From: Thermoanaerobaculia bacterium
GTDB taxonomy: Bacteria > Acidobacteriota > Thermoanaerobaculia > Multivoradales > Multivoraceae
Reading direction: 5' to 3'
Assembly: GCA_022826745.1 (NCBI GenBank)
Contig: JAJDUI010000026.1
Span: 22,458-86,457 of the forward strand
Length of the DNA: 64,000 nt
Position numbers and translations under genes: made by a program. Within the stretch, counting starts at the first letter, position 1. Every line of letters starts with the position of its first letter. Shown one piece after another: positions 6,234 through 53,396 of the stretch. A model generated the notes under the pieces. It was not told where the DNA came from, did no database searches, and was given only the letters and a program-made list of their open reading frames with translations.

Positions 6234-8872
<2,639 letters not shown>

Positions 8873-9425: not shown

Positions 9426-10112
9426 TCACGACGTGGCGGTCAGGGCAACGGCGAGCGCGGCCACCGCGGCCGTCTCTGTCCGCAGCACACGGGGTCCGAG
9501 GTGCGCCGGAATCGCCCCACGTCCGGCCAGTTCCTCCATCTCCCGCTCGCTGAAGCCGCCCTCGGGGCCCACCACGACCGCTTCCGCCGATCCCGCGACG
9601 GCCATGAACGGCGTCGCGGCGCCGGGATGCAGCGCCACCGACCCGGCCCCGATCGGCGCCTCCCCGAGCGGGACCGGCGCGCCGATCTCGGGCAGCCAGG
9701 CGCCGCCGCTCTGTTCGAGCGCCGACTTCGCGACCCGGCGCTGACGCTCCAGAGCCCGTTCCGGCAAGGAACGGCTGGTGCGCTCCGAGACGAGCCACCG
9801 CAGCTCGCGCAACCCCAGTTCCGTCGCCTTCTCGACCAGCCAGGCCGCACGCTCCGGGCGCACGGCGGCCACGAACAGCGCCACGCGCCGGGGCGGCTCG
9901 AACACCGGCGCCGCGCCTTCGACCCGCAGCACCGCCCGCCGCGCGGTCACCTCGTCCACCACCGACCAGCGAGCCGCTCCGCGGCCGTCGACGAGGCGCA
10001 CCCGGTCGCCGACCTTCAGCCGGCGCGCTCGGAACAGATGGCGATAGTCGGCGCCTTCGACCTCGACCGTTCCACGGGCGAGATCACAGGCTTCGGCCAG
10101 TAAATGGATCAT
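9426..10112 (-). CDS. rsmE: 16S rRNA (uracil1498-N3)-methyltransferase RsmE
   Basis: 228 aa with a PUA-like N-terminus and a SPOUT C-terminus (VVVGPEGGFSEREMEEL...IPAHLGPRVLRTETAAVAALA). Confidence 0.85.
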   Translation of the reverse strand: MIHLLAEACDLARGTVEVEGADYRHLFRARRLKVGDRVRLVDGRGAARWSVVDEVTARRAVLRVEGAAPVFEPPRRVALFVAAVRPERAAWLVEKATELGLRELRWLVSERTSRSLPERALERQRRVAKSALEQSGGAWLPEIGAPVPLGEAPIGAGSVALHPGAATPFMAVAGSAEAVVVGPEGGFSEREMEELAGRGAIPAHLGPRVLRTETAAVAALAVALTATS

Positions 10113-29736: not shown

Positions 29737-29772
29737 CGGATGTCGGTGCGCCGGCCTTCCGGCCGGCATCCG
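29737..29772 (+). terminator. GC-rich hairpin between selW-like gene and queD (possible intrinsic terminator or attenuator; no U-tract)
   Basis: cggatg..GCCGGCC-ttcc-GGCCGGC..catccg. A 7-bp perfect core stem with an extended imperfect outer stem. Confidence 0.3.
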
Positions 29773-43790: not shown

Positions 43791-44851
43791 TGCTGTGCGC
43801 CTCGGTGTTGCCGGAATCCGCCGACGAACTCGCCGACCAGCCGGTCCGCCAGATCGTAGGGATCGACCGGATCACAGGGATCGCTGGCCGGCCCGGTTTC
43901 CAGCGGCGCCCGATTCTGCTGCGAATCGGCCTCCCCGTCCAGCGCCTTCGAACCGCTGGCGGCCAGGAGCGCCCGCGCGAACCCGTCGTCGTCGATCGAG
44001 CCCATGGCGAGCCGCAGGACCTCGGCGCGGTACAGGTCGAGCACCCGGCGCCGCAGGCGGGCCGCCCGCCGGTCGCGAATCTCGCCTCCGGCCCGCAGCC
44101 GTTCGAAACACGCGGACACCGCGTCCAGGACCTCCGCCGCGCCTTCGTCGGTCCGGGCCACGGTCGACAGCACGGCCGGCGGCTCGCCACCGGCTCCGTC
44201 CGCCAGGTCGAGCATCTCCACGATGGACCGCCGAGCGGCGGCGGCGCCCGGCAGATCGCTCTTGTTGACGACGAACACGTCCGCGATCTCCATCGTCCCG
44301 CTCTTGATCGCCTGAACGCCGTCGCCCAGGCCGGGCGCCGTCACCAGGACCACGAGGTCCGAGTTCCGGCGAATGGCGGTCTGGGCCTGCCCCGTGCCCA
44401 CGGTCTCCACCAGAATCCAGGGAAAGCCTGCGGCATCGAGCAGGTCGGTCGCCGCGGCGGCGGCCTGCGCCAGTCCGCCACCGGCGCCGCGCGAGGCCAT
44501 TGACCGGATGAATACGCCCGGATCGGTTTCCAGGTCGGACATCCGCACCCGGTCGCCGAGCACGGCGCCGCCGGTCAGCGGGCTGGTCGGGTCGAATGCG
44601 AGCACCGCCACCGGCTCTCCCCGTTGCCGGAGTTCCCGGGCCAGAGCGGCCGTCAACGTGCTCTTGCCGACCCCGGGCGGTCCGGTCAGACCGATCATCA
44701 TCGCGCGGCCGGCACGCCGCCAGGCCGTCTTCGCGAGGGCCTGCGTATCCACGCCGCCCTCGATCGCGGTCAGAGCCCGGCCCAGCCGCCGGGTCTCGCG
44801 CCAGGGCTCGGCGCCAGCCAGCCAGGCGTCGGCGGTCCGATCGACGCTCAC
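43787..44851 (-). CDS. meaB: methylmalonyl-CoA mutase-associated GTPase MeaB/ArgK
   Basis: IGLTGPPGVGKSTL P-loop, ILVETVGTGQ, and VVNKSDL (NKxD). GTG start overlaps the SpoIID-gene TGA (GTGA). Confidence 0.85.
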   Translation of the reverse strand: MSVDRTADAWLAGAEPWRETRRLGRALTAIEGGVDTQALAKTAWRRAGRAMMIGLTGPPGVGKSTLTAALARELRQRGEPVAVLAFDPTSPLTGGAVLGDRVRMSDLETDPGVFIRSMASRGAGGGLAQAAAAATDLLDAAGFPWILVETVGTGQAQTAIRRNSDLVVLVTAPGLGDGVQAIKSGTMEIADVFVVNKSDLPGAAAARRSIVEMLDLADGAGGEPPAVLSTVARTDEGAAEVLDAVSACFERLRAGGEIRDRRAARLRRRVLDLYRAEVLRLAMGSIDDDGFARALLAASGSKALDGEADSQQNRAPLETGPASDPCDPVDPYDLADRLVGEFVGGFRQHRGAQQ

Positions 44852-46677
44852 GATGCGAACCTGCCGATCTCGACCGCGCCGTAGTAGTGCCAGAGGATCT
44901 CCCGGTAGGTCAGACCGCGCTGCGCCATGAGGTACGAGCCGACCTGGCACATGCCGACGCCGTGGCCGCGGCCGCGGCCGGCGAAGCGCCAGCCGGGAAC
45001 GCCCCCGTCGCCCGCTTCGGCGGTCACCCGGAGGAGGTGTTCGGGGATGTCGAGCAGCCAGCGGATCGCCAGACCCTGCAACTCGACCGAACTCCGCTCA
45101 CCGACCAGGTCGATGCGCGCCACCCGACCCGAGACGCCGCGCTCCAGCACTCTCATGGACCTGAGCCCGAGGCCGGGGAAGCGCTTCTCGACGGCGGCGC
45201 GCAGCGAAGCGTGCGACCGCCAGAACGACCACGGCTCCGCCTTCGGTTGATCTCCAGTTCGCGGCGTCTCGTGAACGACCAGGACCACCTGGCCGCGGAC
45301 CAGGTAGACGCGCAGCCGGTCGCCCGGCGCGGCCGTCAGGGATGGCGCCGGTACGCCGAGCTCGCCAGGGGGCGTCCCAGGCGGGACCTCGGTCACCAAC
45401 AGCGCCGACTCGGAAGCCAGCGGCACCAGCCGGCGGCGGCCCTGCTGGCGCAGGTCGAGCCAGCCGCCGGCGAGGCCGCCCAGGCTCCCATGGGCAACTT
45501 CCAGGTCGCCGCCGGAACGGGCGCGGTCCAGTCGCTCATCGACCCGTCTCTCGCGCACCCCGCGAGCGCCGATGGACCTCAGCAGGTGCCTGGCGGGCGA
45601 GTCCTCGGCGCCGCCAGCCAAGGTCACGACTCCCCCTTCGACACAAGCCGTCGCCAGGGGGCCTCCGCCCGCCAGAAGAGGGAAGACGTGATCGACGAGT
45701 TCCGTGCTGCCGCCGCAACTCGCCGTGAACAGCGCCTCCTGGAGGGCGCCGTCACGAAGCAGGATCTCGCCGCCGGTCGCCGCGATCGCGCGGTCCGAGA
45801 CGGGGTGCTCAACCTCCAGGCCGCCGTACACCTGGCACAGCGGCGTGGCGCAGAGGTCGTAGCCCTCCTCCTCGAACTCGCCCAGGCGCTTTGCCGCGTA
45901 GGTGCGCGCGGCCACGGCCTGCGCCTTGATCGCCTCGAGCTCGGGGTACAGGTCCGGACCGAGCTCGACCGGTACGACGCCGCGCAGGTAGTCCTCGAGC
46001 GGCGCCGCGTTGACGACGTTCAGTCCGGCCCGATCGCTCAGGAAGACCTCGAGCGCACCGCGGTAGCGCCGGCCCAGGATGCGAACGACACCGCCGGCCG
46101 ACTCGAGCCGCAGCCTCCGTCCGGCAACCCTGCCGATCCCGTCGACCTCGAAGCCCGGCTCCTCCAGAACCTGGCCCTCGATGGTGATCCAGACGTCGTC
46201 GAACCCTTCGACATGAAGCCGGCCACGAGCAGCCTCCGCCGCCTCCCGGTCGCCGAAGCGGCCCACGCGGACCCGGTACAGGCCCGTGCCCGCGTCGAGC
46301 ACTGAGTCCGCCCGCTGATCGAGCAGATCCGCCAGCCGGCCGGCCAGCTTTTCCGCCTGCACCCGATCCCTCAACGCCGCCACCTGCAGGCGATGGACTC
46401 CCGGGCTCGCCGTCCCCGGCGCGGCCAGCACCTCGAAGGAGCCGGCAACCTCATACCGCCGGCCCGCGTCGTCCACAAGCCACGAAGCCCCGTCGCAGCA
46501 GGAAACCTCGACCCGCTCCAGGTCCGTGGCCAGCCCGAGCCGAATCTCCTCCGGCAGCACGATCGACGGAGGAGACGCCGTCCGGTTCGGCGCCGTCGCC
46601 AGCAGCAGGCAGGCCACGGCGACCAGACCCAGGTTGGTCAGGTGCCGCTTGACCGTCTGTGACCCGCGTACTCCCAT
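44848..46677 (-). CDS. SpoIID/LytB-domain protein with SPOR domain
   Basis: Signal peptide. A SPOR-like region (HRLQVAALRDRVQAEKLAGRL...YRVRVGRFGDREAAEAA) and a SpoIID/LytB domain (AIKAQAVAARTYA...LCATPLCQVY...FTASCGGSTE). Confidence 0.72.
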   Translation of the reverse strand: MGVRGSQTVKRHLTNLGLVAVACLLLATAPNRTASPPSIVLPEEIRLGLATDLERVEVSCCDGASWLVDDAGRRYEVAGSFEVLAAPGTASPGVHRLQVAALRDRVQAEKLAGRLADLLDQRADSVLDAGTGLYRVRVGRFGDREAAEAARGRLHVEGFDDVWITIEGQVLEEPGFEVDGIGRVAGRRLRLESAGGVVRILGRRYRGALEVFLSDRAGLNVVNAAPLEDYLRGVVPVELGPDLYPELEAIKAQAVAARTYAAKRLGEFEEEGYDLCATPLCQVYGGLEVEHPVSDRAIAATGGEILLRDGALQEALFTASCGGSTELVDHVFPLLAGGGPLATACVEGGVVTLAGGAEDSPARHLLRSIGARGVRERRVDERLDRARSGGDLEVAHGSLGGLAGGWLDLRQQGRRRLVPLASESALLVTEVPPGTPPGELGVPAPSLTAAPGDRLRVYLVRGQVVLVVHETPRTGDQPKAEPWSFWRSHASLRAAVEKRFPGLGLRSMRVLERGVSGRVARIDLVGERSSVELQGLAIRWLLDIPEHLLRVTAEAGDGGVPGWRFAGRGRGHGVGMCQVGSYLMAQRGLTYREILWHYYGAVEIGRFAS

Positions 46678-46760
46678 CGCTCCGTTACATACGTTATTGG
46701 AAATACGCCAAAGCGGCCGTTTCTTCGAAAGGTGCCGGCCTGGCGGCCGGCGCGTTCTCC

Positions 46761-46799
46761 GCCGCCTTCGGCGGCAGCGGGTCAGAAGACCCGCGCACC
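46761..46799. repeat. REP-like intergenic element, copy 1
   Basis: GCCGCCTTCGGCGGCaGCGGGTCAGAAGACCCGCGCACC contains two hairpins (GCCGCC-ttc-GGCGGC and GGGTC-agaa-GACCC). Near-identical copy at 51739-51778. Confidence 0.6.
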
Positions 46800-46841
46800 C
46801 AGAGCGACGTATAGCCGAACTGAGGGATTCCAGTCCCGCGG

Positions 46842-47009
46842 CGTCGGCCGGAGGGGGGAGGGTCCCAGCGGGCTAGAGCCAAGCGACTGCCGTAGAGCTT
46901 TCCCCTGCCGACGCCCTACCGGAGCGCAGGCGACCGAAGCGAACGCCCAACCTCACATCCACCAAGCGGGCGTGAGCGTCCGCTGGGACCCTCCCCCCTC
47001 CGGCCGACG
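46842..47009. repeat. perfect 30-bp inverted repeats flanking a 108-bp core (MITE-like element or long structured RNA)
   Basis: Left arm 46842-46871 CGTCGGCCGGAGGGGGGAGGGTCCCAGCGG is the exact reverse complement of right arm 46980-47009. Sits 20 nt 3' of the dnaC-like gene stop. Confidence 0.6.
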
Positions 47010-47029
47010 TTGCGGGACGGTCGCGACTG

Positions 47030-47779
47030 CTACCGGTGCTGATGCGCCTGGAGTTCGTGCCGGTAGTCGCCGACGGCGTCGATGAGGATCGGCTTCGCCA
47101 TCTGGTGGAGGCGGCTGATCAGGCTGGCGGGGACGCGGCCGGCCAGGTTCCGGGCCGCGTCCGCGCTGTCGTCGTCGGCTTCGGACGTCAGGTAGTAGTT
47201 GCTGGTGAACAGGGTCGGCCGGCGGGCCATGTAGCGGCCGTTGATCAGCAGGTACAGCGTGTCGGAGACGAAGGGCGAGGGCCGTCGCGCGCCGAGCTCG
47301 TCGACGACCACCACCTCCGCCTCCTGGAGCGGACGCAGCAGATCGGCCTGGTTCCGCGGAGCGTCGGGCTGAAACGTCGCCTGGATGTCGGCGACCAGGC
47401 TGGTGAAGTCGACGAAGCGGCCGCCGACGCCGTACTGCTCGGCCAGCTCGATCAGCACGGCCACGGCAAGGTGCGTCTTGCCCCGGCCGCTCGGGCCGAT
47501 GAACACCAGTCCGGCTTCGTTCAGCGATCCGTCGAGCTCCATGAACTCCTCGATGTACTGGTCGCAGTCGCGGCGGGCGGTGAGGAGCTGGTCGCCCACG
47601 TCCCCGGCGAGCCGGAAGTTCGTCAGACGGCAACCCTGGTACTTGGGCGGAATGCCCAGGTCGTCGACGCGGCGGCCGCGGACGCGGCTCGCGTGGCAGG
47701 TGCAGCGGCGCGCGCGGTTGGTGGCGAGGTCGACGATCCAGCCGCGCCCCTGGCAGAACTCGCAGTCTTCCCCGTTCAA
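47030..47779 (-). CDS. DnaC/DnaI-like AAA+ helicase-loader family protein with N-terminal Zn-ribbon
   Basis: CEFCQGRGW...CTC zinc ribbon. Walker A GPSGRGKTHLAVA, Walker B VVVVDELG, and LFTSN sensor. Confidence 0.7.
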   Translation of the reverse strand: MNGEDCEFCQGRGWIVDLATNRARRCTCHASRVRGRRVDDLGIPPKYQGCRLTNFRLAGDVGDQLLTARRDCDQYIEEFMELDGSLNEAGLVFIGPSGRGKTHLAVAVLIELAEQYGVGGRFVDFTSLVADIQATFQPDAPRNQADLLRPLQEAEVVVVDELGARRPSPFVSDTLYLLINGRYMARRPTLFTSNYYLTSEADDDSADAARNLAGRVPASLISRLHQMAKPILIDAVGDYRHELQAHQHR

Positions 47780-48132
47780 TCCTCGTCCTCGACCTTGACC
47801 AGCGCACCGCTTCGCACCCAGACCAGGGCGTGCCGGCGCCGGACACCCCGGCGGCGGTCCGCCGCGTCGCGCTCAACGATCGAGAGTAGCCGGTCCCGCT
47901 CGGCTTCGAGCCGCGCCAGCCGTTCCTGCAGCGTGAGAATGACCTCGACTCCCGCCAGGTTGACCCCCATGTCCCGGGTCAGGGTCAGGATCGATTCGAG
48001 CCGGTTCAGGGAGTCTTCGTCGTAGAGGCGTGTGTTGCCATCGCTCCGTTGCGGCTCCAGAAGGCCCTCCCGCTCGTAAAGCCGGAGGGTCTGCGGATGG
48101 ATGTCGTAGCGCTCGGCGACCTTGCTGATCAT
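47776..48132 (-). CDS. hspR: MerR-family heat-shock regulator (HspR-like)
   Basis: MISKVAERYDIHPQTLRLYEREGLLEPQRSDGNTRLYDEDSLNRLESIL is a MerR HTH. Positioned immediately 3' of dnaK as HspR is in dnaK operons. Trimmed from the track ORF to the conserved start. ATGA overlap with the dnaC-like gene. Confidence 0.7.
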   Translation of the reverse strand: MISKVAERYDIHPQTLRLYEREGLLEPQRSDGNTRLYDEDSLNRLESILTLTRDMGVNLAGVEVILTLQERLARLEAERDRLLSIVERDAADRRRGVRRRHALVWVRSGALVKVEDED

Positions 48133-48207
48133 CACGTAGCGGCCGCCCCCCACCCGCCGGCGGCGGGACGGGGGACGGCGCTCACGCGACGACCGCGGCG
48201 GCGCCAC

Positions 48208-50157
<1,950 letters not shown>

Positions 50158-50893: not shown

Positions 50894-51739
50894 ATGCAGG
50901 ATCCTAACAAAGGAGACGGCGGCGGCACCGACTCCTGCTCGCTCGCTCCGATCGCCGAGCTGATCGACCGGCTGCGCGTCGACTGCCCCTGGGACCGCGA
51001 GCTGTCACTGGCGGATCTCCGCGCGTACCTGATCGAGGAGGCTCACGAACTGGCCGCGGCGATCGACGAACGCGATCCCGCCGCGATCAACGAGGAACTG
51101 GGCGACCTGCTGTTCGAGGCGGTGTACGTCGCCCGGCTGACCGCCGCCGAACTGGACGAGATGCCCCTCGGCGGAGCGATCCGCACCGTGATCGACAAGA
51201 TGGTCGCCCGGCATCCCCACGTCTTCGGAGACGAGAAGGACCAGGCAGGACCGGGTTCCGCGGCCGAAGTCGCGGCGATGTGGGAACGGCGCAAGCGGAA
51301 CTCCGACGGCGAGCGTTCCGTGCTGGACGGCGTGCCGGCCTCCCTGCCGGCCCTGGTCGGCGCCTACCGTCTCGGCCAGAAGGCGGCCGGTATCGGTTTC
51401 GACTGGGACTCGACCGAAGCCGTGCGCGCCAAGGTGGCGGAGGAACTCGCCGAGCTGGACCACGAGACGGCCGGCGGCGAGGCCTCCCAATCGGCCGAGG
51501 CGAAAGCGCGGGTCGAAGAAGAACTGGGCGACGTGCTGTTCGCGGTCGCCAACCTCGCCCGCCACCTGGAGGTGGACCCGGAGCGCGCGCTGGCGGCGGC
51601 GAACCGGAAGTTCCGCCGGCGTTTCGCGGCAATGGAGGCGGAGCTCGGGCCCGGCGGCGAGCACCGGATGGAGGAGCTGGAGAGGTTGTGGGAGCGGGCT
51701 AAGGGGAGGGAAGGTCGGGCTTCGCCCGGCGATTCCTAG
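50894..51739 (+). CDS. mazG: nucleoside triphosphate pyrophosphohydrolase MazG
   Basis: Tandem MazG EEAHELAAAI...EELGDLLFEAVYVARL and EELAE...EELGDVLFAVANLAR motifs. Start trimmed to MQDPNK. Confidence 0.8.
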   Translation: MQDPNKGDGGGTDSCSLAPIAELIDRLRVDCPWDRELSLADLRAYLIEEAHELAAAIDERDPAAINEELGDLLFEAVYVARLTAAELDEMPLGGAIRTVIDKMVARHPHVFGDEKDQAGPGSAAEVAAMWERRKRNSDGERSVLDGVPASLPALVGAYRLGQKAAGIGFDWDSTEAVRAKVAEELAELDHETAGGEASQSAEAKARVEEELGDVLFAVANLARHLEVDPERALAAANRKFRRRFAAMEAELGPGGEHRMEELERLWERAKGREGRASPGDS

Positions 51740-51778
51740 CCGCCTTCGGCGGCGGGCGGGTCAGAAGACCCGCGCACC
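51739..51778. repeat. REP-like intergenic element, copy 2
   Basis: GCCGCCTTCGGCGGCgGgCGGGTCAGAAGACCCGCGCACC begins at the last base of the mazG TAG stop. Two mismatches versus the copy at 46761. Confidence 0.6.
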
Positions 51779-51827
51779 GACCCGCGCACCGACCCGCGCA
51801 CCGACCCGCAGCACCGACCCGCGCACC
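51767..51827. repeat. tandem 12-nt repeat (GACCCGCGCACC) x5
   Basis: Five head-to-tail copies, the fourth degenerate (GACCCGCAGCAC). Extends from the REP-like element to 3 nt before the ctp stop, in a convergent intergenic region. Confidence 0.7.
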
Positions 51828-51829
51828 GG

Positions 51830-53050
51830 CTACAGCTGCCCCGGCTCCGACGGAGCTTCCAGGATGAAGAGATCCAGAGCGTCCTCAAGCACCGGGTCGG
51901 ATCCGTCCTCGGGTTCGCCGAAGGAGAAGTTGTTCAGGCGGTCTTCGTTGGCGACGCGGATTCGGCCGTTCAGCCGTTCTCCCTCCGGGTCCGTGTAGAA
52001 AGCCGCGGTCGTTTCGAGCAGGCCGCCGCCGTTCGGCAGTTCGATCTGTTGCAGCGTTCCGGCATGGCCGAAGGTCGACTCGCCGTAGTGGTCCGCGTCG
52101 ACCGACTTAAGCAGGACGGCGGTCAGGACCTCGGCCGGTCCCTGGGAACTGCGATCCGTCAGGACGCCGATGTCGCCCGAGTACAGGCCCCCCGCGCCCT
52201 CGAAGGTCTCGAGCCTCCGGTCCTCCCGGTCGACCAGGCTGCCCAGCTCGCCCACGGCGAACAGGCCCGCCACCGCGTAGGCGGCCTCCGCTGAACCTCC
52301 CGCGACGCCGCGGACATCGATCAGCAGGGAGTCGCCGGCGTAGCCGTCGAGCAACGCCTCCACCTGCGCGGCCGTGCCGGAGCCGAAGCTCGGGATCCTC
52401 AGCACGCCGGAACCGTCGACCTCTTCAAAGTCAGGTTGCAGCGGCTCGTACTCTTCCAGGGTCAGGCTCACGTCGACGCTGTTGCCGCGCCGCACCAGCT
52501 CCAGCTCCAGTTCGGAACCGACCGGGCCGGCGAGCTGACGCCGCAGCTCCCACAGAGGCATCGCGCGGGACGAACGGCCGTTGATACCGGCGACGATGTC
52601 GCCGCGCTCCAGACCGGCGGCCTCGGCCGGGCTGCCGCCGTCGACCGCGACCACATAGGCGGTGCCGCGCTCCTTGAGCACGAGGACGCCCGAATGCCGG
52701 CGGCCCACATCACGCGCCGCCCGGTACGACTCGACCTCGCCCGGCGGTACGTAGACCGAGAAGGGATCGAGGGCATCCGTCACGCCATCCATGGCGCCCG
52801 CCGTCAGGCTGCGTCCGTCGGTCGCCTCGACGTACGAGCCGCGGATCAGCCGAAGTACCTCCTCCCACAGCGTGAGGTACTTGTAGATCGAGTCCCGTCC
52901 GCCGTCTTCTGCGTCGTCGCTGGCGCCCAGCCAGGCGCCGCCGGCGAGACCAAGGACCAGGAGCAGGGACAGGCAGACGACAGCCAGCCGGCCGCCGCCG
53001 ACCCCGTGGCGGCGATGCTCCCGCGACCGCCCCCTGCCTTCCGCGTCCAC
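51830..53050 (-). CDS. S41-family C-terminal processing peptidase with PDZ domain
   Basis: PDZ (GLERGDIVAGINGRS) and the S41 catalytic region (LIDVRGVAGGS...). GTG start 7 nt after the STAS gene stop gives an N-terminal membrane anchor. The track ORF upstream extension is R/S/P-rich junk. Confidence 0.78.
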   Translation of the reverse strand: MDAEGRGRSREHRRHGVGGGRLAVVCLSLLLVLGLAGGAWLGASDDAEDGGRDSIYKYLTLWEEVLRLIRGSYVEATDGRSLTAGAMDGVTDALDPFSVYVPPGEVESYRAARDVGRRHSGVLVLKERGTAYVVAVDGGSPAEAAGLERGDIVAGINGRSSRAMPLWELRRQLAGPVGSELELELVRRGNSVDVSLTLEEYEPLQPDFEEVDGSGVLRIPSFGSGTAAQVEALLDGYAGDSLLIDVRGVAGGSAEAAYAVAGLFAVGELGSLVDREDRRLETFEGAGGLYSGDIGVLTDRSSQGPAEVLTAVLLKSVDADHYGESTFGHAGTLQQIELPNGGGLLETTAAFYTDPEGERLNGRIRVANEDRLNNFSFGEPEDGSDPVLEDALDLFILEAPSEPGQL

Positions 53051-53057
53051 CGCTCTG

Positions 53058-53396
53058 TCAGGCGACCGAGGCGACTGCCTCGTCCTCGTCCTCCAGGATG
53101 TCCAGCACGGTAACCAACTGGGTGATCTGGAGCACACCGAGGACCCTGCTCGGCATGGAGAACAGGCGCAGCTTGCCGCCGCGGTTGGTGACCGTCGTGT
53201 AGGCGGCGACCAGTTCACCGACGCCGGAGGAGTCGATGGAGCGCACGCGCCCCATGTTCAGCAGGATGTTCGTAGCGCCTTCGCCGACCGCCGCGAGGAC
53301 GGCCTCTCTCAAGGCAACGTCGCCCTCGCCGATCGTGATCCTGCCCTGGAGATCGAGAATCGTCGCTCCATCCCGCTGGCGCTTGTCAATCTTCAT
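53058..53396 (-). CDS. STAS-domain anti-sigma factor antagonist (SpoIIAA/RsbV-like)
   Basis: 112 aa. LDLQGRITIGEGDVALREAV..., MGRVRSIDSSGVGELV with the conserved phosphorylatable Ser region. Confidence 0.8.
   Translation of the reverse strand: MKIDKRQRDGATILDLQGRITIGEGDVALREAVLAAVGEGATNILLNMGRVRSIDSSGVGELVAAYTTVTNRGGKLRLFSMPSRVLGVLQITQLVTVLDILEDEDEAVASVA

Follow-up and report, generated by a model that had tools for sequence, protein, structure and literature searches.

What is the long inverted repeat that lies directly behind a DnaC-like gene in the genome of a Thermoanaerobaculia bacterium? The repeat was noticed in the first-pass annotation of the window, which is the whole stretch of 64,000 nt that was analysed here. 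Three readings had been offered there. The repeat could be a miniature inverted-repeat transposable element (MITE), the terminal repeats of a degraded insertion sequence, or a structured RNA or terminator that belongs to the upstream operon. It had also been held that the repeat would simply be a long terminator hairpin in case no other copies and no transcript were found. In this work, the repeat was measured, its homologs were collected, and the structure, position, and inheritance of the copies were compared.

Inverted repeat and its genomic context

The two 30-nt arms are exact reverse complements that lie 108 nt apart, as had been stated in the first-pass annotation. The arms were lengthened to 39 nt with 95% complementarity by a repeat search (Table 1). 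The two mismatches in the 39-bp stem are G:T on the + strand and A:C on the - strand. The 29-nt arm has only two sites in the 64 kb window with up to three mismatches tolerated, and its pattern was obtained in 0 of 100 shuffled sequences. Among the inverted repeats of the window that are spaced within 400 nt, this one is the longest and cleanest, and no comparable one was identified elsewhere. Both results bear out the earlier view that chance is an unlikely source of the repeat. The folding check that had been proposed gave approximately -138 kcal/mol on either strand, which is far below the shuffled controls (z = -7.5 and -10). The G+C content is approximately 70% and is flat across the region. 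The stem begins 11 nt past the stop codon of the DnaC-like gene, in agreement with the earlier placement immediately 3' of that gene. The description of the intergenic region as otherwise unique is not retained, since short hairpin motifs in that region recur within the window.

Table 1. Features of the element and of its surroundings in the window.
Feature	Position	Strand	Remarks
Whole element	46831-47019	-	Match of covariance model R1
P1 5' strand (upstream-gene sense), gene-proximal arm	46980-47018	-	Perfect in 46980-47009; both mismatches in the outer 9 nt
P1 3' strand, gene-distal arm	46833-46871	-	Perfect part 46842-46871
P2 hairpin	46939-46977	-	Stem ACGCC/GGCGU plus GC/GC; loop CCGCUUGGUGGAUGUGAGGUUG
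P3 region	46879-46930	-	Short conserved base CC..GC / GC..GG
11-nt spacer, stop codon of DnaC-like gene to P1 foot (47018)	47019-47029	-	
Stop codon of DnaC-like gene	47030-47032	-	
DnaC/IstB-like AAA+ ATPase gene	47030-47779	-	Context, not part of the element; Pfam IstB_IS21/DnaC-like, 45.6 bits
MerR-family gene	47776-48207	-	
Hsp70/DnaK gene	48208-50157	-	
Small conserved hairpin GGUGCGC-GGGUC-UUCU-GACCC-GC	46777-46799	-	Separate repeat, 33 nt downstream of P1
Second small hairpin GCCGCC-GAAG-GCGGC	46761-46775	-	Also trails the small motif at 51739-51753
Third hairpin GCCGGCC-GCCA-GGCCGGC, then ACCUUUCG	46734-46751	-	Ahead of the SpoIID/SPOR start; read from the sequence
SpoIID/SPOR gene	44848-46677	-	Downstream of the element; start at 46677

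The conserved dnaK-merR-dnaC-like block ends with the DnaC-like gene. The chromosomal block that consists of DUF1844, dnaK, the merR-family gene, the dnaC-like gene, spoIID/SPOR, and meaB (window 47030-50157, loci L113-L118) is conserved even where orthologs share as little as 51% identity. The dnaC-like gene starts within the last 4 nt of the merR-family gene, and this overlap suggests a heat-shock-linked operon. The merR-family gene appears partly deleted in the strain of locus L003 (2701-3001, compared with window 47776-48207), where 158 of 428 nt align and no gene was called. The dnaC-like gene of that strain is 99.5% identical to that of the window.

An IS21 remnant was considered at this locus and rejected. 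No IstA gene lies beside the DnaC/IstB-like gene, whose neighbours are dnaK and the merR-family gene, and the locus is not regarded as an IS21 because IstA is missing. The combination of istA and multiple terminal repeats that marks IS21 was not found. The DnaC/IstB-like gene also sits in the conserved chromosomal block, the synteny of which extends to element-free orthologs of 51% identity, and the degraded insertion sequence of the first-pass annotation is dropped on these grounds.

No hairpin followed by a U-tract was found in 46400-47300. The sequence directly after the stem is UGGAAUCCCUCAG and it does not contain a U-tract, which removes the canonical terminator from the candidates. No sigma-70-like promoter was found in or beside the element. 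No Rfam 15 family matched the element in a search of the whole window at gathering thresholds, nor in one of 46600-47150 at E values up to 10. The weak matches to rsmX, NiCo, and similar Rfam families lie outside the element and are at chance level. No tRNA or tmRNA was found at the element. Elsewhere in the window, ARAGORN called a tRNA-Arg with anticodon GCG at 9882-9970 (-), which at 89 nt is unusually long for tRNA-Arg.

Identification and taxonomic distribution of the element family

The pattern CCGGAGGG-N(0-5)-GAGGGTCCCAG was searched in a collection with a single genome for each bacterial and archaeal species. It matched at 105 loci, many of which have a + and a - match at the spacing of the window. 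A profile was constructed from 31 paired copies and run with nhmmer on the DNA of the retrieved loci, where 94 full-length copies were identified. The case without other copies, in which the repeat would have been a simple long terminator hairpin, does not apply to this multi-copy family. Judged from these homologs, the inverted repeat forms the closing stem (P1) of a dispersed element of approximately 185-190 nt, one copy of which lies in the window.

The covariance model R1 was built from 45 non-redundant copies. R1 scored 150.6 bits (E = 2e-26) on the window copy and found no second copy in the window, where the next best score was at most 16.4 bits.

The 28 species-level genomes that hold 89 of the 94 copies are all from Acidobacteriota and are mostly labelled Ca. 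Multivorans or Thermoanaerobaculia. The element family is confined to one clade of Thermoanaerobaculia (Ca. Multivoraceae, Acidobacteriota). No R1 family signal was found in the non-acidobacterial pattern matches or in the single viral match. The pattern matches from Streptomyces, Gemmatimonadota, Myxococcota, and other groups are considered to be chance matches without family signal. A phage origin was rejected as well, as the lone pattern match on a viral contig (L112) fails the family profile. Our literature search on the host genus found no paper.

Up to eight copies per genome were present within the retrieved 8-kb blocks alone. Because 12 copies were found by the profile alone, unselected for the arm pattern, in approximately 690 kb and one copy was found in the 64 kb window, some dozens of copies per genome may be expected as a rough estimate.

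Architecture of the element and covariation

The alignment places all copies in a single orientation. Read in the direction of the upstream gene, the order of the parts is CACCC, P1 5' strand, junction, P2, core blocks, P1 3' strand, and CUGGAC. The core that follows P2 consists of the conserved block UCGCUNNGGUCGGCUGCGCUCCG, a variable stretch of approximately 40 nt, and the conserved block GUCGCUUGCC. The base of P3 encloses a variable segment of approximately 40 nt and the conserved blocks UCGCUNNGGUCG, CUGCGCUCCG, and GUCGCUUG. In the window copy, a G-C pair of the consensus at the P3 base is replaced by C-G, which is a compensated swap.

P1 is 35-45 bp long across the family. Its near-invariant inner part is CCGGAGGGGAGGGTCCCAG, written as CCGGAGGGGAGGGUCCCAG in the direction of the upstream gene. 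Judged from its sequence, the arm CCGGAGGGGAGGGTCCCAG is not self-complementary. The outer part of approximately 14 bp differs in sequence between copies and keeps its complementarity. The conserved 19 bp of P1 are internal and not terminal. The copies that were unselected for the arm pattern still have a P1 of 35-45 bp with different inner sequences. The inner stem is taken to be a true helix because these copies keep an equally long P1 with different inner sequences.

In the alignment of 27 sequences, 96.4% of the cells are paired, compared with 88.3% in shuffles and 41-53% with slid partners. Double changes occur in 18 pairs of that alignment, a result that was matched by 0 of 500 shuffles. 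In the alignment of 45 sequences, compensatory double changes were identified in 26 of the 38 predicted pairs. The P2 stem covaries among GCGCC/GGCGC, ACCCC/GGGGU, GCACU/GGUGC, and further variants, and its loop is G-rich. The alignments indicate that P1 and P2 are maintained by compensatory substitutions. The thermodynamic stability of P2 and P3 does not exceed that of shuffles. The evidence for P2 is covariation alone, and P3 is mostly conserved sequence.

An extra module of approximately 70 nt was identified in five non-orthologous copies (L041 at ~790-860, L011, L060, L017, and L083), exactly at the P1/P2 junction. It consists of two covarying hairpins, CCGTGCGCCCG...CGGGCGCACGG and GGGTGGCGCG...CGCGCCACCC. 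The module is absent from L066, which is the ortholog of L041, and from L025, which is a paralog of L011 with 95% identity. Long and short forms would interconvert because the ortholog of a module-bearing copy does not have the module. The module may be either a nested site-specific mini-element or the difference between long and short forms that are swapped by recombination. At another locus (L037, ~6860-7018), a cut-back copy of the element is followed by a pure tandem array of the 28-nt unit GGCCGGTACGGAACCGCCTTAGTCTTCT. This array does not contain spacers, and a CRISPR array was rejected for that reason.

Position of the copies at gene ends

The gene ends were called with an ORF heuristic based on GC3 that was devised for this analysis. 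The majority of copies (71 of 94) begin within 80 nt past the 3' end of a co-oriented gene, and three lie near the end of a gene of opposite orientation. Among the gene-proximal copies, 71 of 74 share the orientation of the upstream gene. The gene that comes next on the downstream side is found in either orientation and at any distance. The distance from the stop codon to P1 is 5-79 nt with a peak at 5-6 nt, and it is at most 15 nt in 25 of 65 copies (~38%).

The upstream genes are unrelated housekeeping genes. They encode GCS2 ligase, TonB-dependent receptor, GatB, tRNA methyltransferase, RelA/SpoT, TrkA, MoaA, sigma-54 activator, HMG-CoA reductase, and the DnaC-like protein of the window. 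At several independent loci, the conserved CACCC that borders the element on its 5' side follows the stop codon without a gap. TAG stops were counted in 43 of 66 element-bearing genes and in 130 of 341 other long ORFs from the same loci, where orthologs are not independent, and the enrichment of TAG before the element is only suggestive.

A separate small motif consists of GGUGCGC and a covarying hairpin of 5-7 bp (GGGTC/GACCC or CGGCC/GGCCG) with the loop YUCY (YTCY in DNA). Among the 41 copies of this motif in the family loci, 27 lie downstream of the element at a distance of 1-115 nt and share its orientation. The motif also trails genes that do not have the element. In the window, it is found at 46777-46799, at 51756-51778 after an unrelated gene on the - strand, and as a variant at 29745-29766. 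The small motif may be the usual gene-end or terminator-like hairpin of this lineage, and it is not followed by a U-tract.

Between the stop codon of the gene at 51830-53218 (-) and the small hairpin, the region 51767-51830 (-) contains the 12-mer GGTGCGCGGGTC, the 5' half of the small hairpin motif, three to five times in tandem. The hairpin that follows at 51739-51753, GCCGCCGAAGGCGGC, recurs at 46761-46775. The Logan contigs L004, L005, and L006 end at the small hairpin motif or a few bases from it. These ends are probably assembly breaks caused by the repeat and not transcript ends.

The element lies in the putative 3' UTR of the DnaC-like gene, in the same sense and ahead of small terminator-like hairpins, and is most likely transcribed as the tail of its mRNA. 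It is read as part of the upstream mRNA mainly because it is placed between the stop codon and the gene-end hairpins.

Inheritance of the element

The best paralog of a copy within the same genome has a mean identity of 77% (mostly 67-82%), and only two pairs reach 93-95%. Between genomes, the best matches are 85-99% identical and share their flanks, which makes them orthologs.

Intact copies at the DnaC-like locus were found in the window, in the near-identical metagenome contigs L001, L002, and L005, and also in L004, L061, L069, L100, and L099. Three different truncations were identified at this locus, one in L003/L006/L035, one in L019, and one in L077. Because these truncations arose independently in different lineages, the element is dispensable at this locus. 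The orthologous loci where the DnaC-like protein is 78%, 72%, 70%, and 51% identical have spacers of 18, 58, 160, and 9 nt, respectively, in which no trace of the element was found. The gene order is unchanged at these element-free loci, with dnaK-merR-dnaC-like-spoIID-meaB retained in the orthologs of 51-78% identity. The empty orthologous sites were identified in more distant species only. Because orthologous copies occur within the clade and the sites are empty in more distant relatives, the element is concluded to have reached the DnaC-like site in an ancestor of the clade and to have been inherited vertically since then, with its pairing kept and occasional decay tolerated.

Two genes upstream of the element in L004 are 99.5-100% identical to those of the window, and the element itself is 78% identical. 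A replacement of the element was rejected for this contig. It is instead a recombination mosaic with a breakpoint in the last ~25 nt of the gene, as L004 carries an L069-like element together with an L069-like last ~25 nt of the gene.

Target-site duplications were searched in 529 boundary combinations of 48 non-redundant copies. At most 5 of the 48 copies share a 4-mer and 10 of the 48 share a 3-mer, and the check for such duplications that had been proposed earlier was negative at every boundary of these 48 copies. Approximately 700 kb of loci did not reveal a transposase next to any full or half copy. The half copies are deletion derivatives. They were also considered as the ends of a larger autonomous element, which was rejected in favour of deletion products, and the ORF between two halves in L064 does not resemble a transposase by eye. 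The copies compared did not give evidence of recent movement.

Comparison with known repeat families

The element was compared with the known classes of small repeats. The MITE reading of the first-pass annotation holds in part. The repeat family with many copies was recovered, with 94 full-length, dispersed, non-coding copies shorter than ~300 bp. The hallmarks of MITEs were not recovered. The ends are variable and the conserved 19 bp are internal instead of lying at the very ends, no target-site duplication was identified, no matching transposase was seen in the retrieved loci, and the paralogs are old (mean best identity 77%, with only two pairs at 93-95%) where recent movement would be expected.

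In REPINs, two highly conserved inverted blocks form a long hairpin, and the remainder of its stem shows compensatory changes (PMC3116915). The two conserved inverted blocks (~16-20 nt), the hairpin, and the compensatory changes described there were all found in the element. As with the REP and REPIN sequences of Pseudomonas and E. coli, which are associated with RAYT transposases, the copies are dispersed, extragenic, mostly placed after genes, and persist vertically for a long time. However, the element is approximately twice as long, and its stem closes a conserved core of several parts, whereas the spacer of REPINs is loosely conserved. Its arms also do not have the short imperfect palindrome with a 5' tetranucleotide (GTAG) that defines a REP unit. 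Near-identical master copies are missing from the genomes here, the orientation to the upstream gene is strict, and no RAYT gene was seen in the loci examined.

The Correia elements (CREE/NEMIS) of Neisseria are similar in that they are ~100-160 bp long with inverted-repeat ends of ~26 bp and a directional conserved core. They also occur in short and long forms, and their co-transcribed hairpin is bound or cut by RNase III (PMC2649163). In contrast, CREEs have conserved termini, TA target duplications, promoter-forming ends, IHF sites, and insertion differences between strains, and they are often located 5' of genes. The element here has variable termini, no duplication, no promoter-like sequence, a 3' placement, and an unrelated sequence.

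ERIC/IRU, RUP, BOX, SMAG, and other MITE-like intergenic repeats are likewise small non-coding interspersed hairpin repeats, and they can alter the stability of flanking mRNA (PMC2229807, PMC10969869, and established knowledge). They differ in taxa and sequences and generally have conserved ends or duplications and recent copies. To our knowledge, no family of the ERIC, RUP, BOX, or SMAG type has been reported with this architecture or from Thermoanaerobaculia.

The attC sites of integrons occur in tandem cassette arrays and have the core sites R''/R' (RYYYAAC/GTTRRRY). An attC site was rejected, as the copies are dispersed behind conserved housekeeping genes and do not have GTTRRRY cores at the foot of the stem. 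The intrinsic terminator, a G+C-rich hairpin and then a U-tract, is represented here by the hairpin alone. No Rfam covariance model matched the element, and the covariation support is comparable to that of many curated Rfam motifs. By this comparison, the element resembles interspersed hairpin repeats of the REP/REPIN, Correia, and ERIC kind and appears to be a new family among them. The family is absent from Rfam and is unrelated in sequence to these repeats.

Transcribed strand, proposed function, and rival explanations

Selection on one RNA strand predicts that G-U pairs outnumber A-C mismatches on that strand. The strand comparison was run on data sets of 27 sequences, 91 sequences, and 47 clusters, and it did not single out one strand in any of them. 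At cluster level and in the sense view, P1 has 30 G-U against 46 A-C and P2 has 33 G-U against 9 A-C, where one pair alone contributes 24 of the 33. These counts do not favour the sense strand, and selection could act equally on a DNA hairpin, on the opposite strand, or on both strands. A sense-strand RNA that is co-transcribed with the gene is favoured by the orientation rule, by the position between the stop codon and the gene-end hairpins, and by the missing promoter. The structured-RNA part of the first-pass annotation agrees best with the covariation and the fixed sense orientation, and its terminator part is set aside for want of a U-tract.

From the alignments and the gene ends, we consider it solid that the copies form a structured, selected, and orientation-specific family of 3'-UTR elements. 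We are inclined, by a modest degree, to regard the element as one of old REP- or MITE-like origin that is now inherited vertically and acts in cis as a co-transcribed hairpin module of the 3' UTR. The family would have spread long ago by a REP- or MITE-like process. The mRNA of the upstream gene would run through the element, and P1 would fold to a duplex of ~39 bp. A stable P1 would block 3'-5' exonucleases as REP hairpins do, and it would be long and regular enough for cleavage by RNase III. Long repeat hairpins in mRNA are bound or cut by RNase III in the case of Correia elements in Neisseria (PMC2649163). Where the foot of P1 lies within 15 nt of the stop codon (11 nt here), it may impede the terminating ribosome as REP elements do in E. 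coli. A passage of PMC12306157 that cites Liang et al. 2015 states that a REP within 15 nt of a stop codon stalls ribosomes and lowers expression in E. coli. The near-invariant inner stem and the core blocks may be bound by a dedicated factor that binds RNA or DNA. A more specific version is put forward tentatively and is possible rather than expected. It takes the element as a sequence-specific 3'-UTR module behind perhaps 1-2% of the genes of Ca. Multivoraceae, with recognition by a dedicated protein or with release of a stable stem-loop RNA of ~150 nt by RNase III.

The chief rival explanation, which we consider unlikely on balance and still worth serious weight, is selfish non-autonomous DNA of the REPIN or MITE type that performs no host function. 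The single-stranded DNA hairpin would be the substrate of a transposase encoded elsewhere, and the structure would be conserved because foldable copies alone replicate. The many dispersed copies per genome fit this explanation, and so do the two near-invariant inverted blocks of 19 bp with compensatory changes elsewhere in the hairpin, as in REPINs (PMC3116915), whose invariant ends, which the inner arms resemble, are thought to be recognised as DNA. The lack of a strand bias in wobble pairs, the conserved short motifs beside the foot of the stem (CACCC 5' and CUGGAC 3'), and the gain or loss of the ~70-nt two-hairpin module at one exact position also agree with it, as do the repeated truncation at the DnaC locus and the empty orthologous site in more distant relatives. 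However, near-identical copies are missing within genomes, and there is no sign of ongoing replication because the best paralogs have a mean identity of 77% compared with 85-99% for orthologs. Pairing was kept at orthologous sites long after insertion, and the sense orientation of 71 of the 74 gene-proximal copies has no obvious reason in a DNA transposon. No target-site duplication was found, a search of ~700 kb of loci showed no transposase next to full or half copies, and the single arm is not a REP-like palindrome. The lack of young copies and the strict orientation weaken this explanation, and the co-transcribed module in the 3' UTR is preferred to it.

An independent small RNA from the + strand, which would be antisense to and convergent with the DnaC-like gene and whose ends would be paired by the stem, is considered improbable. 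The two stem mismatches of the window copy are G-U on the + strand, the outer part of P1 has somewhat more A:C than G:U in the sense view and has more G-U in the antisense view, and the unpaired segments are richer in A on the + strand when read by eye. However, this wobble bias is weak and is reversed in P2, no promoter-like site was found in or beside the element of ~70% G+C, and the placement 5-40 nt after stop codons with a small hairpin of the same sense downstream is explained more simply by co-transcription. We give hardly any credence to a one-off long terminator of the dnaK-merR-dnaC-like operon or to the remains of an IS21-type element with its IstB-like gene. The repeat does lie directly after the last gene of the block, and the upstream gene does match IstB_IS21 in Pfam. 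However, 94 homologous copies lie behind unrelated genes, the stem does not have a U-tract, IstA is missing, and the synteny is kept to orthologs of 51% identity that do not have the element.

Implications

Most of what is known on interspersed hairpin repeats, for example REP, REPIN, Correia, and ERIC, comes from Proteobacteria and a few Firmicutes, and the persistence of these repeats and their use by the host are still debated. The family described here shows a rare combination of strict sense orientation past stop codons, a conserved core of several parts inside a very long stem, deep vertical inheritance with compensatory evolution, and no sign of current mobility. This combination argues that pairing was selected over a long time after fixation at the sites. 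It is a candidate for a new entry in the catalogues of RNA families. Both the element and the small hairpin motif are repeats at which short-read assemblies from these bacteria break. The family might be a useful model of how interspersed repeats are domesticated. If the more specific version with a sequence-specific 3'-UTR module is true, the family would represent a post-transcriptional regulon, or a switch based on ribosome stalling or mRNA decay, in an uncultured acidobacterial lineage.
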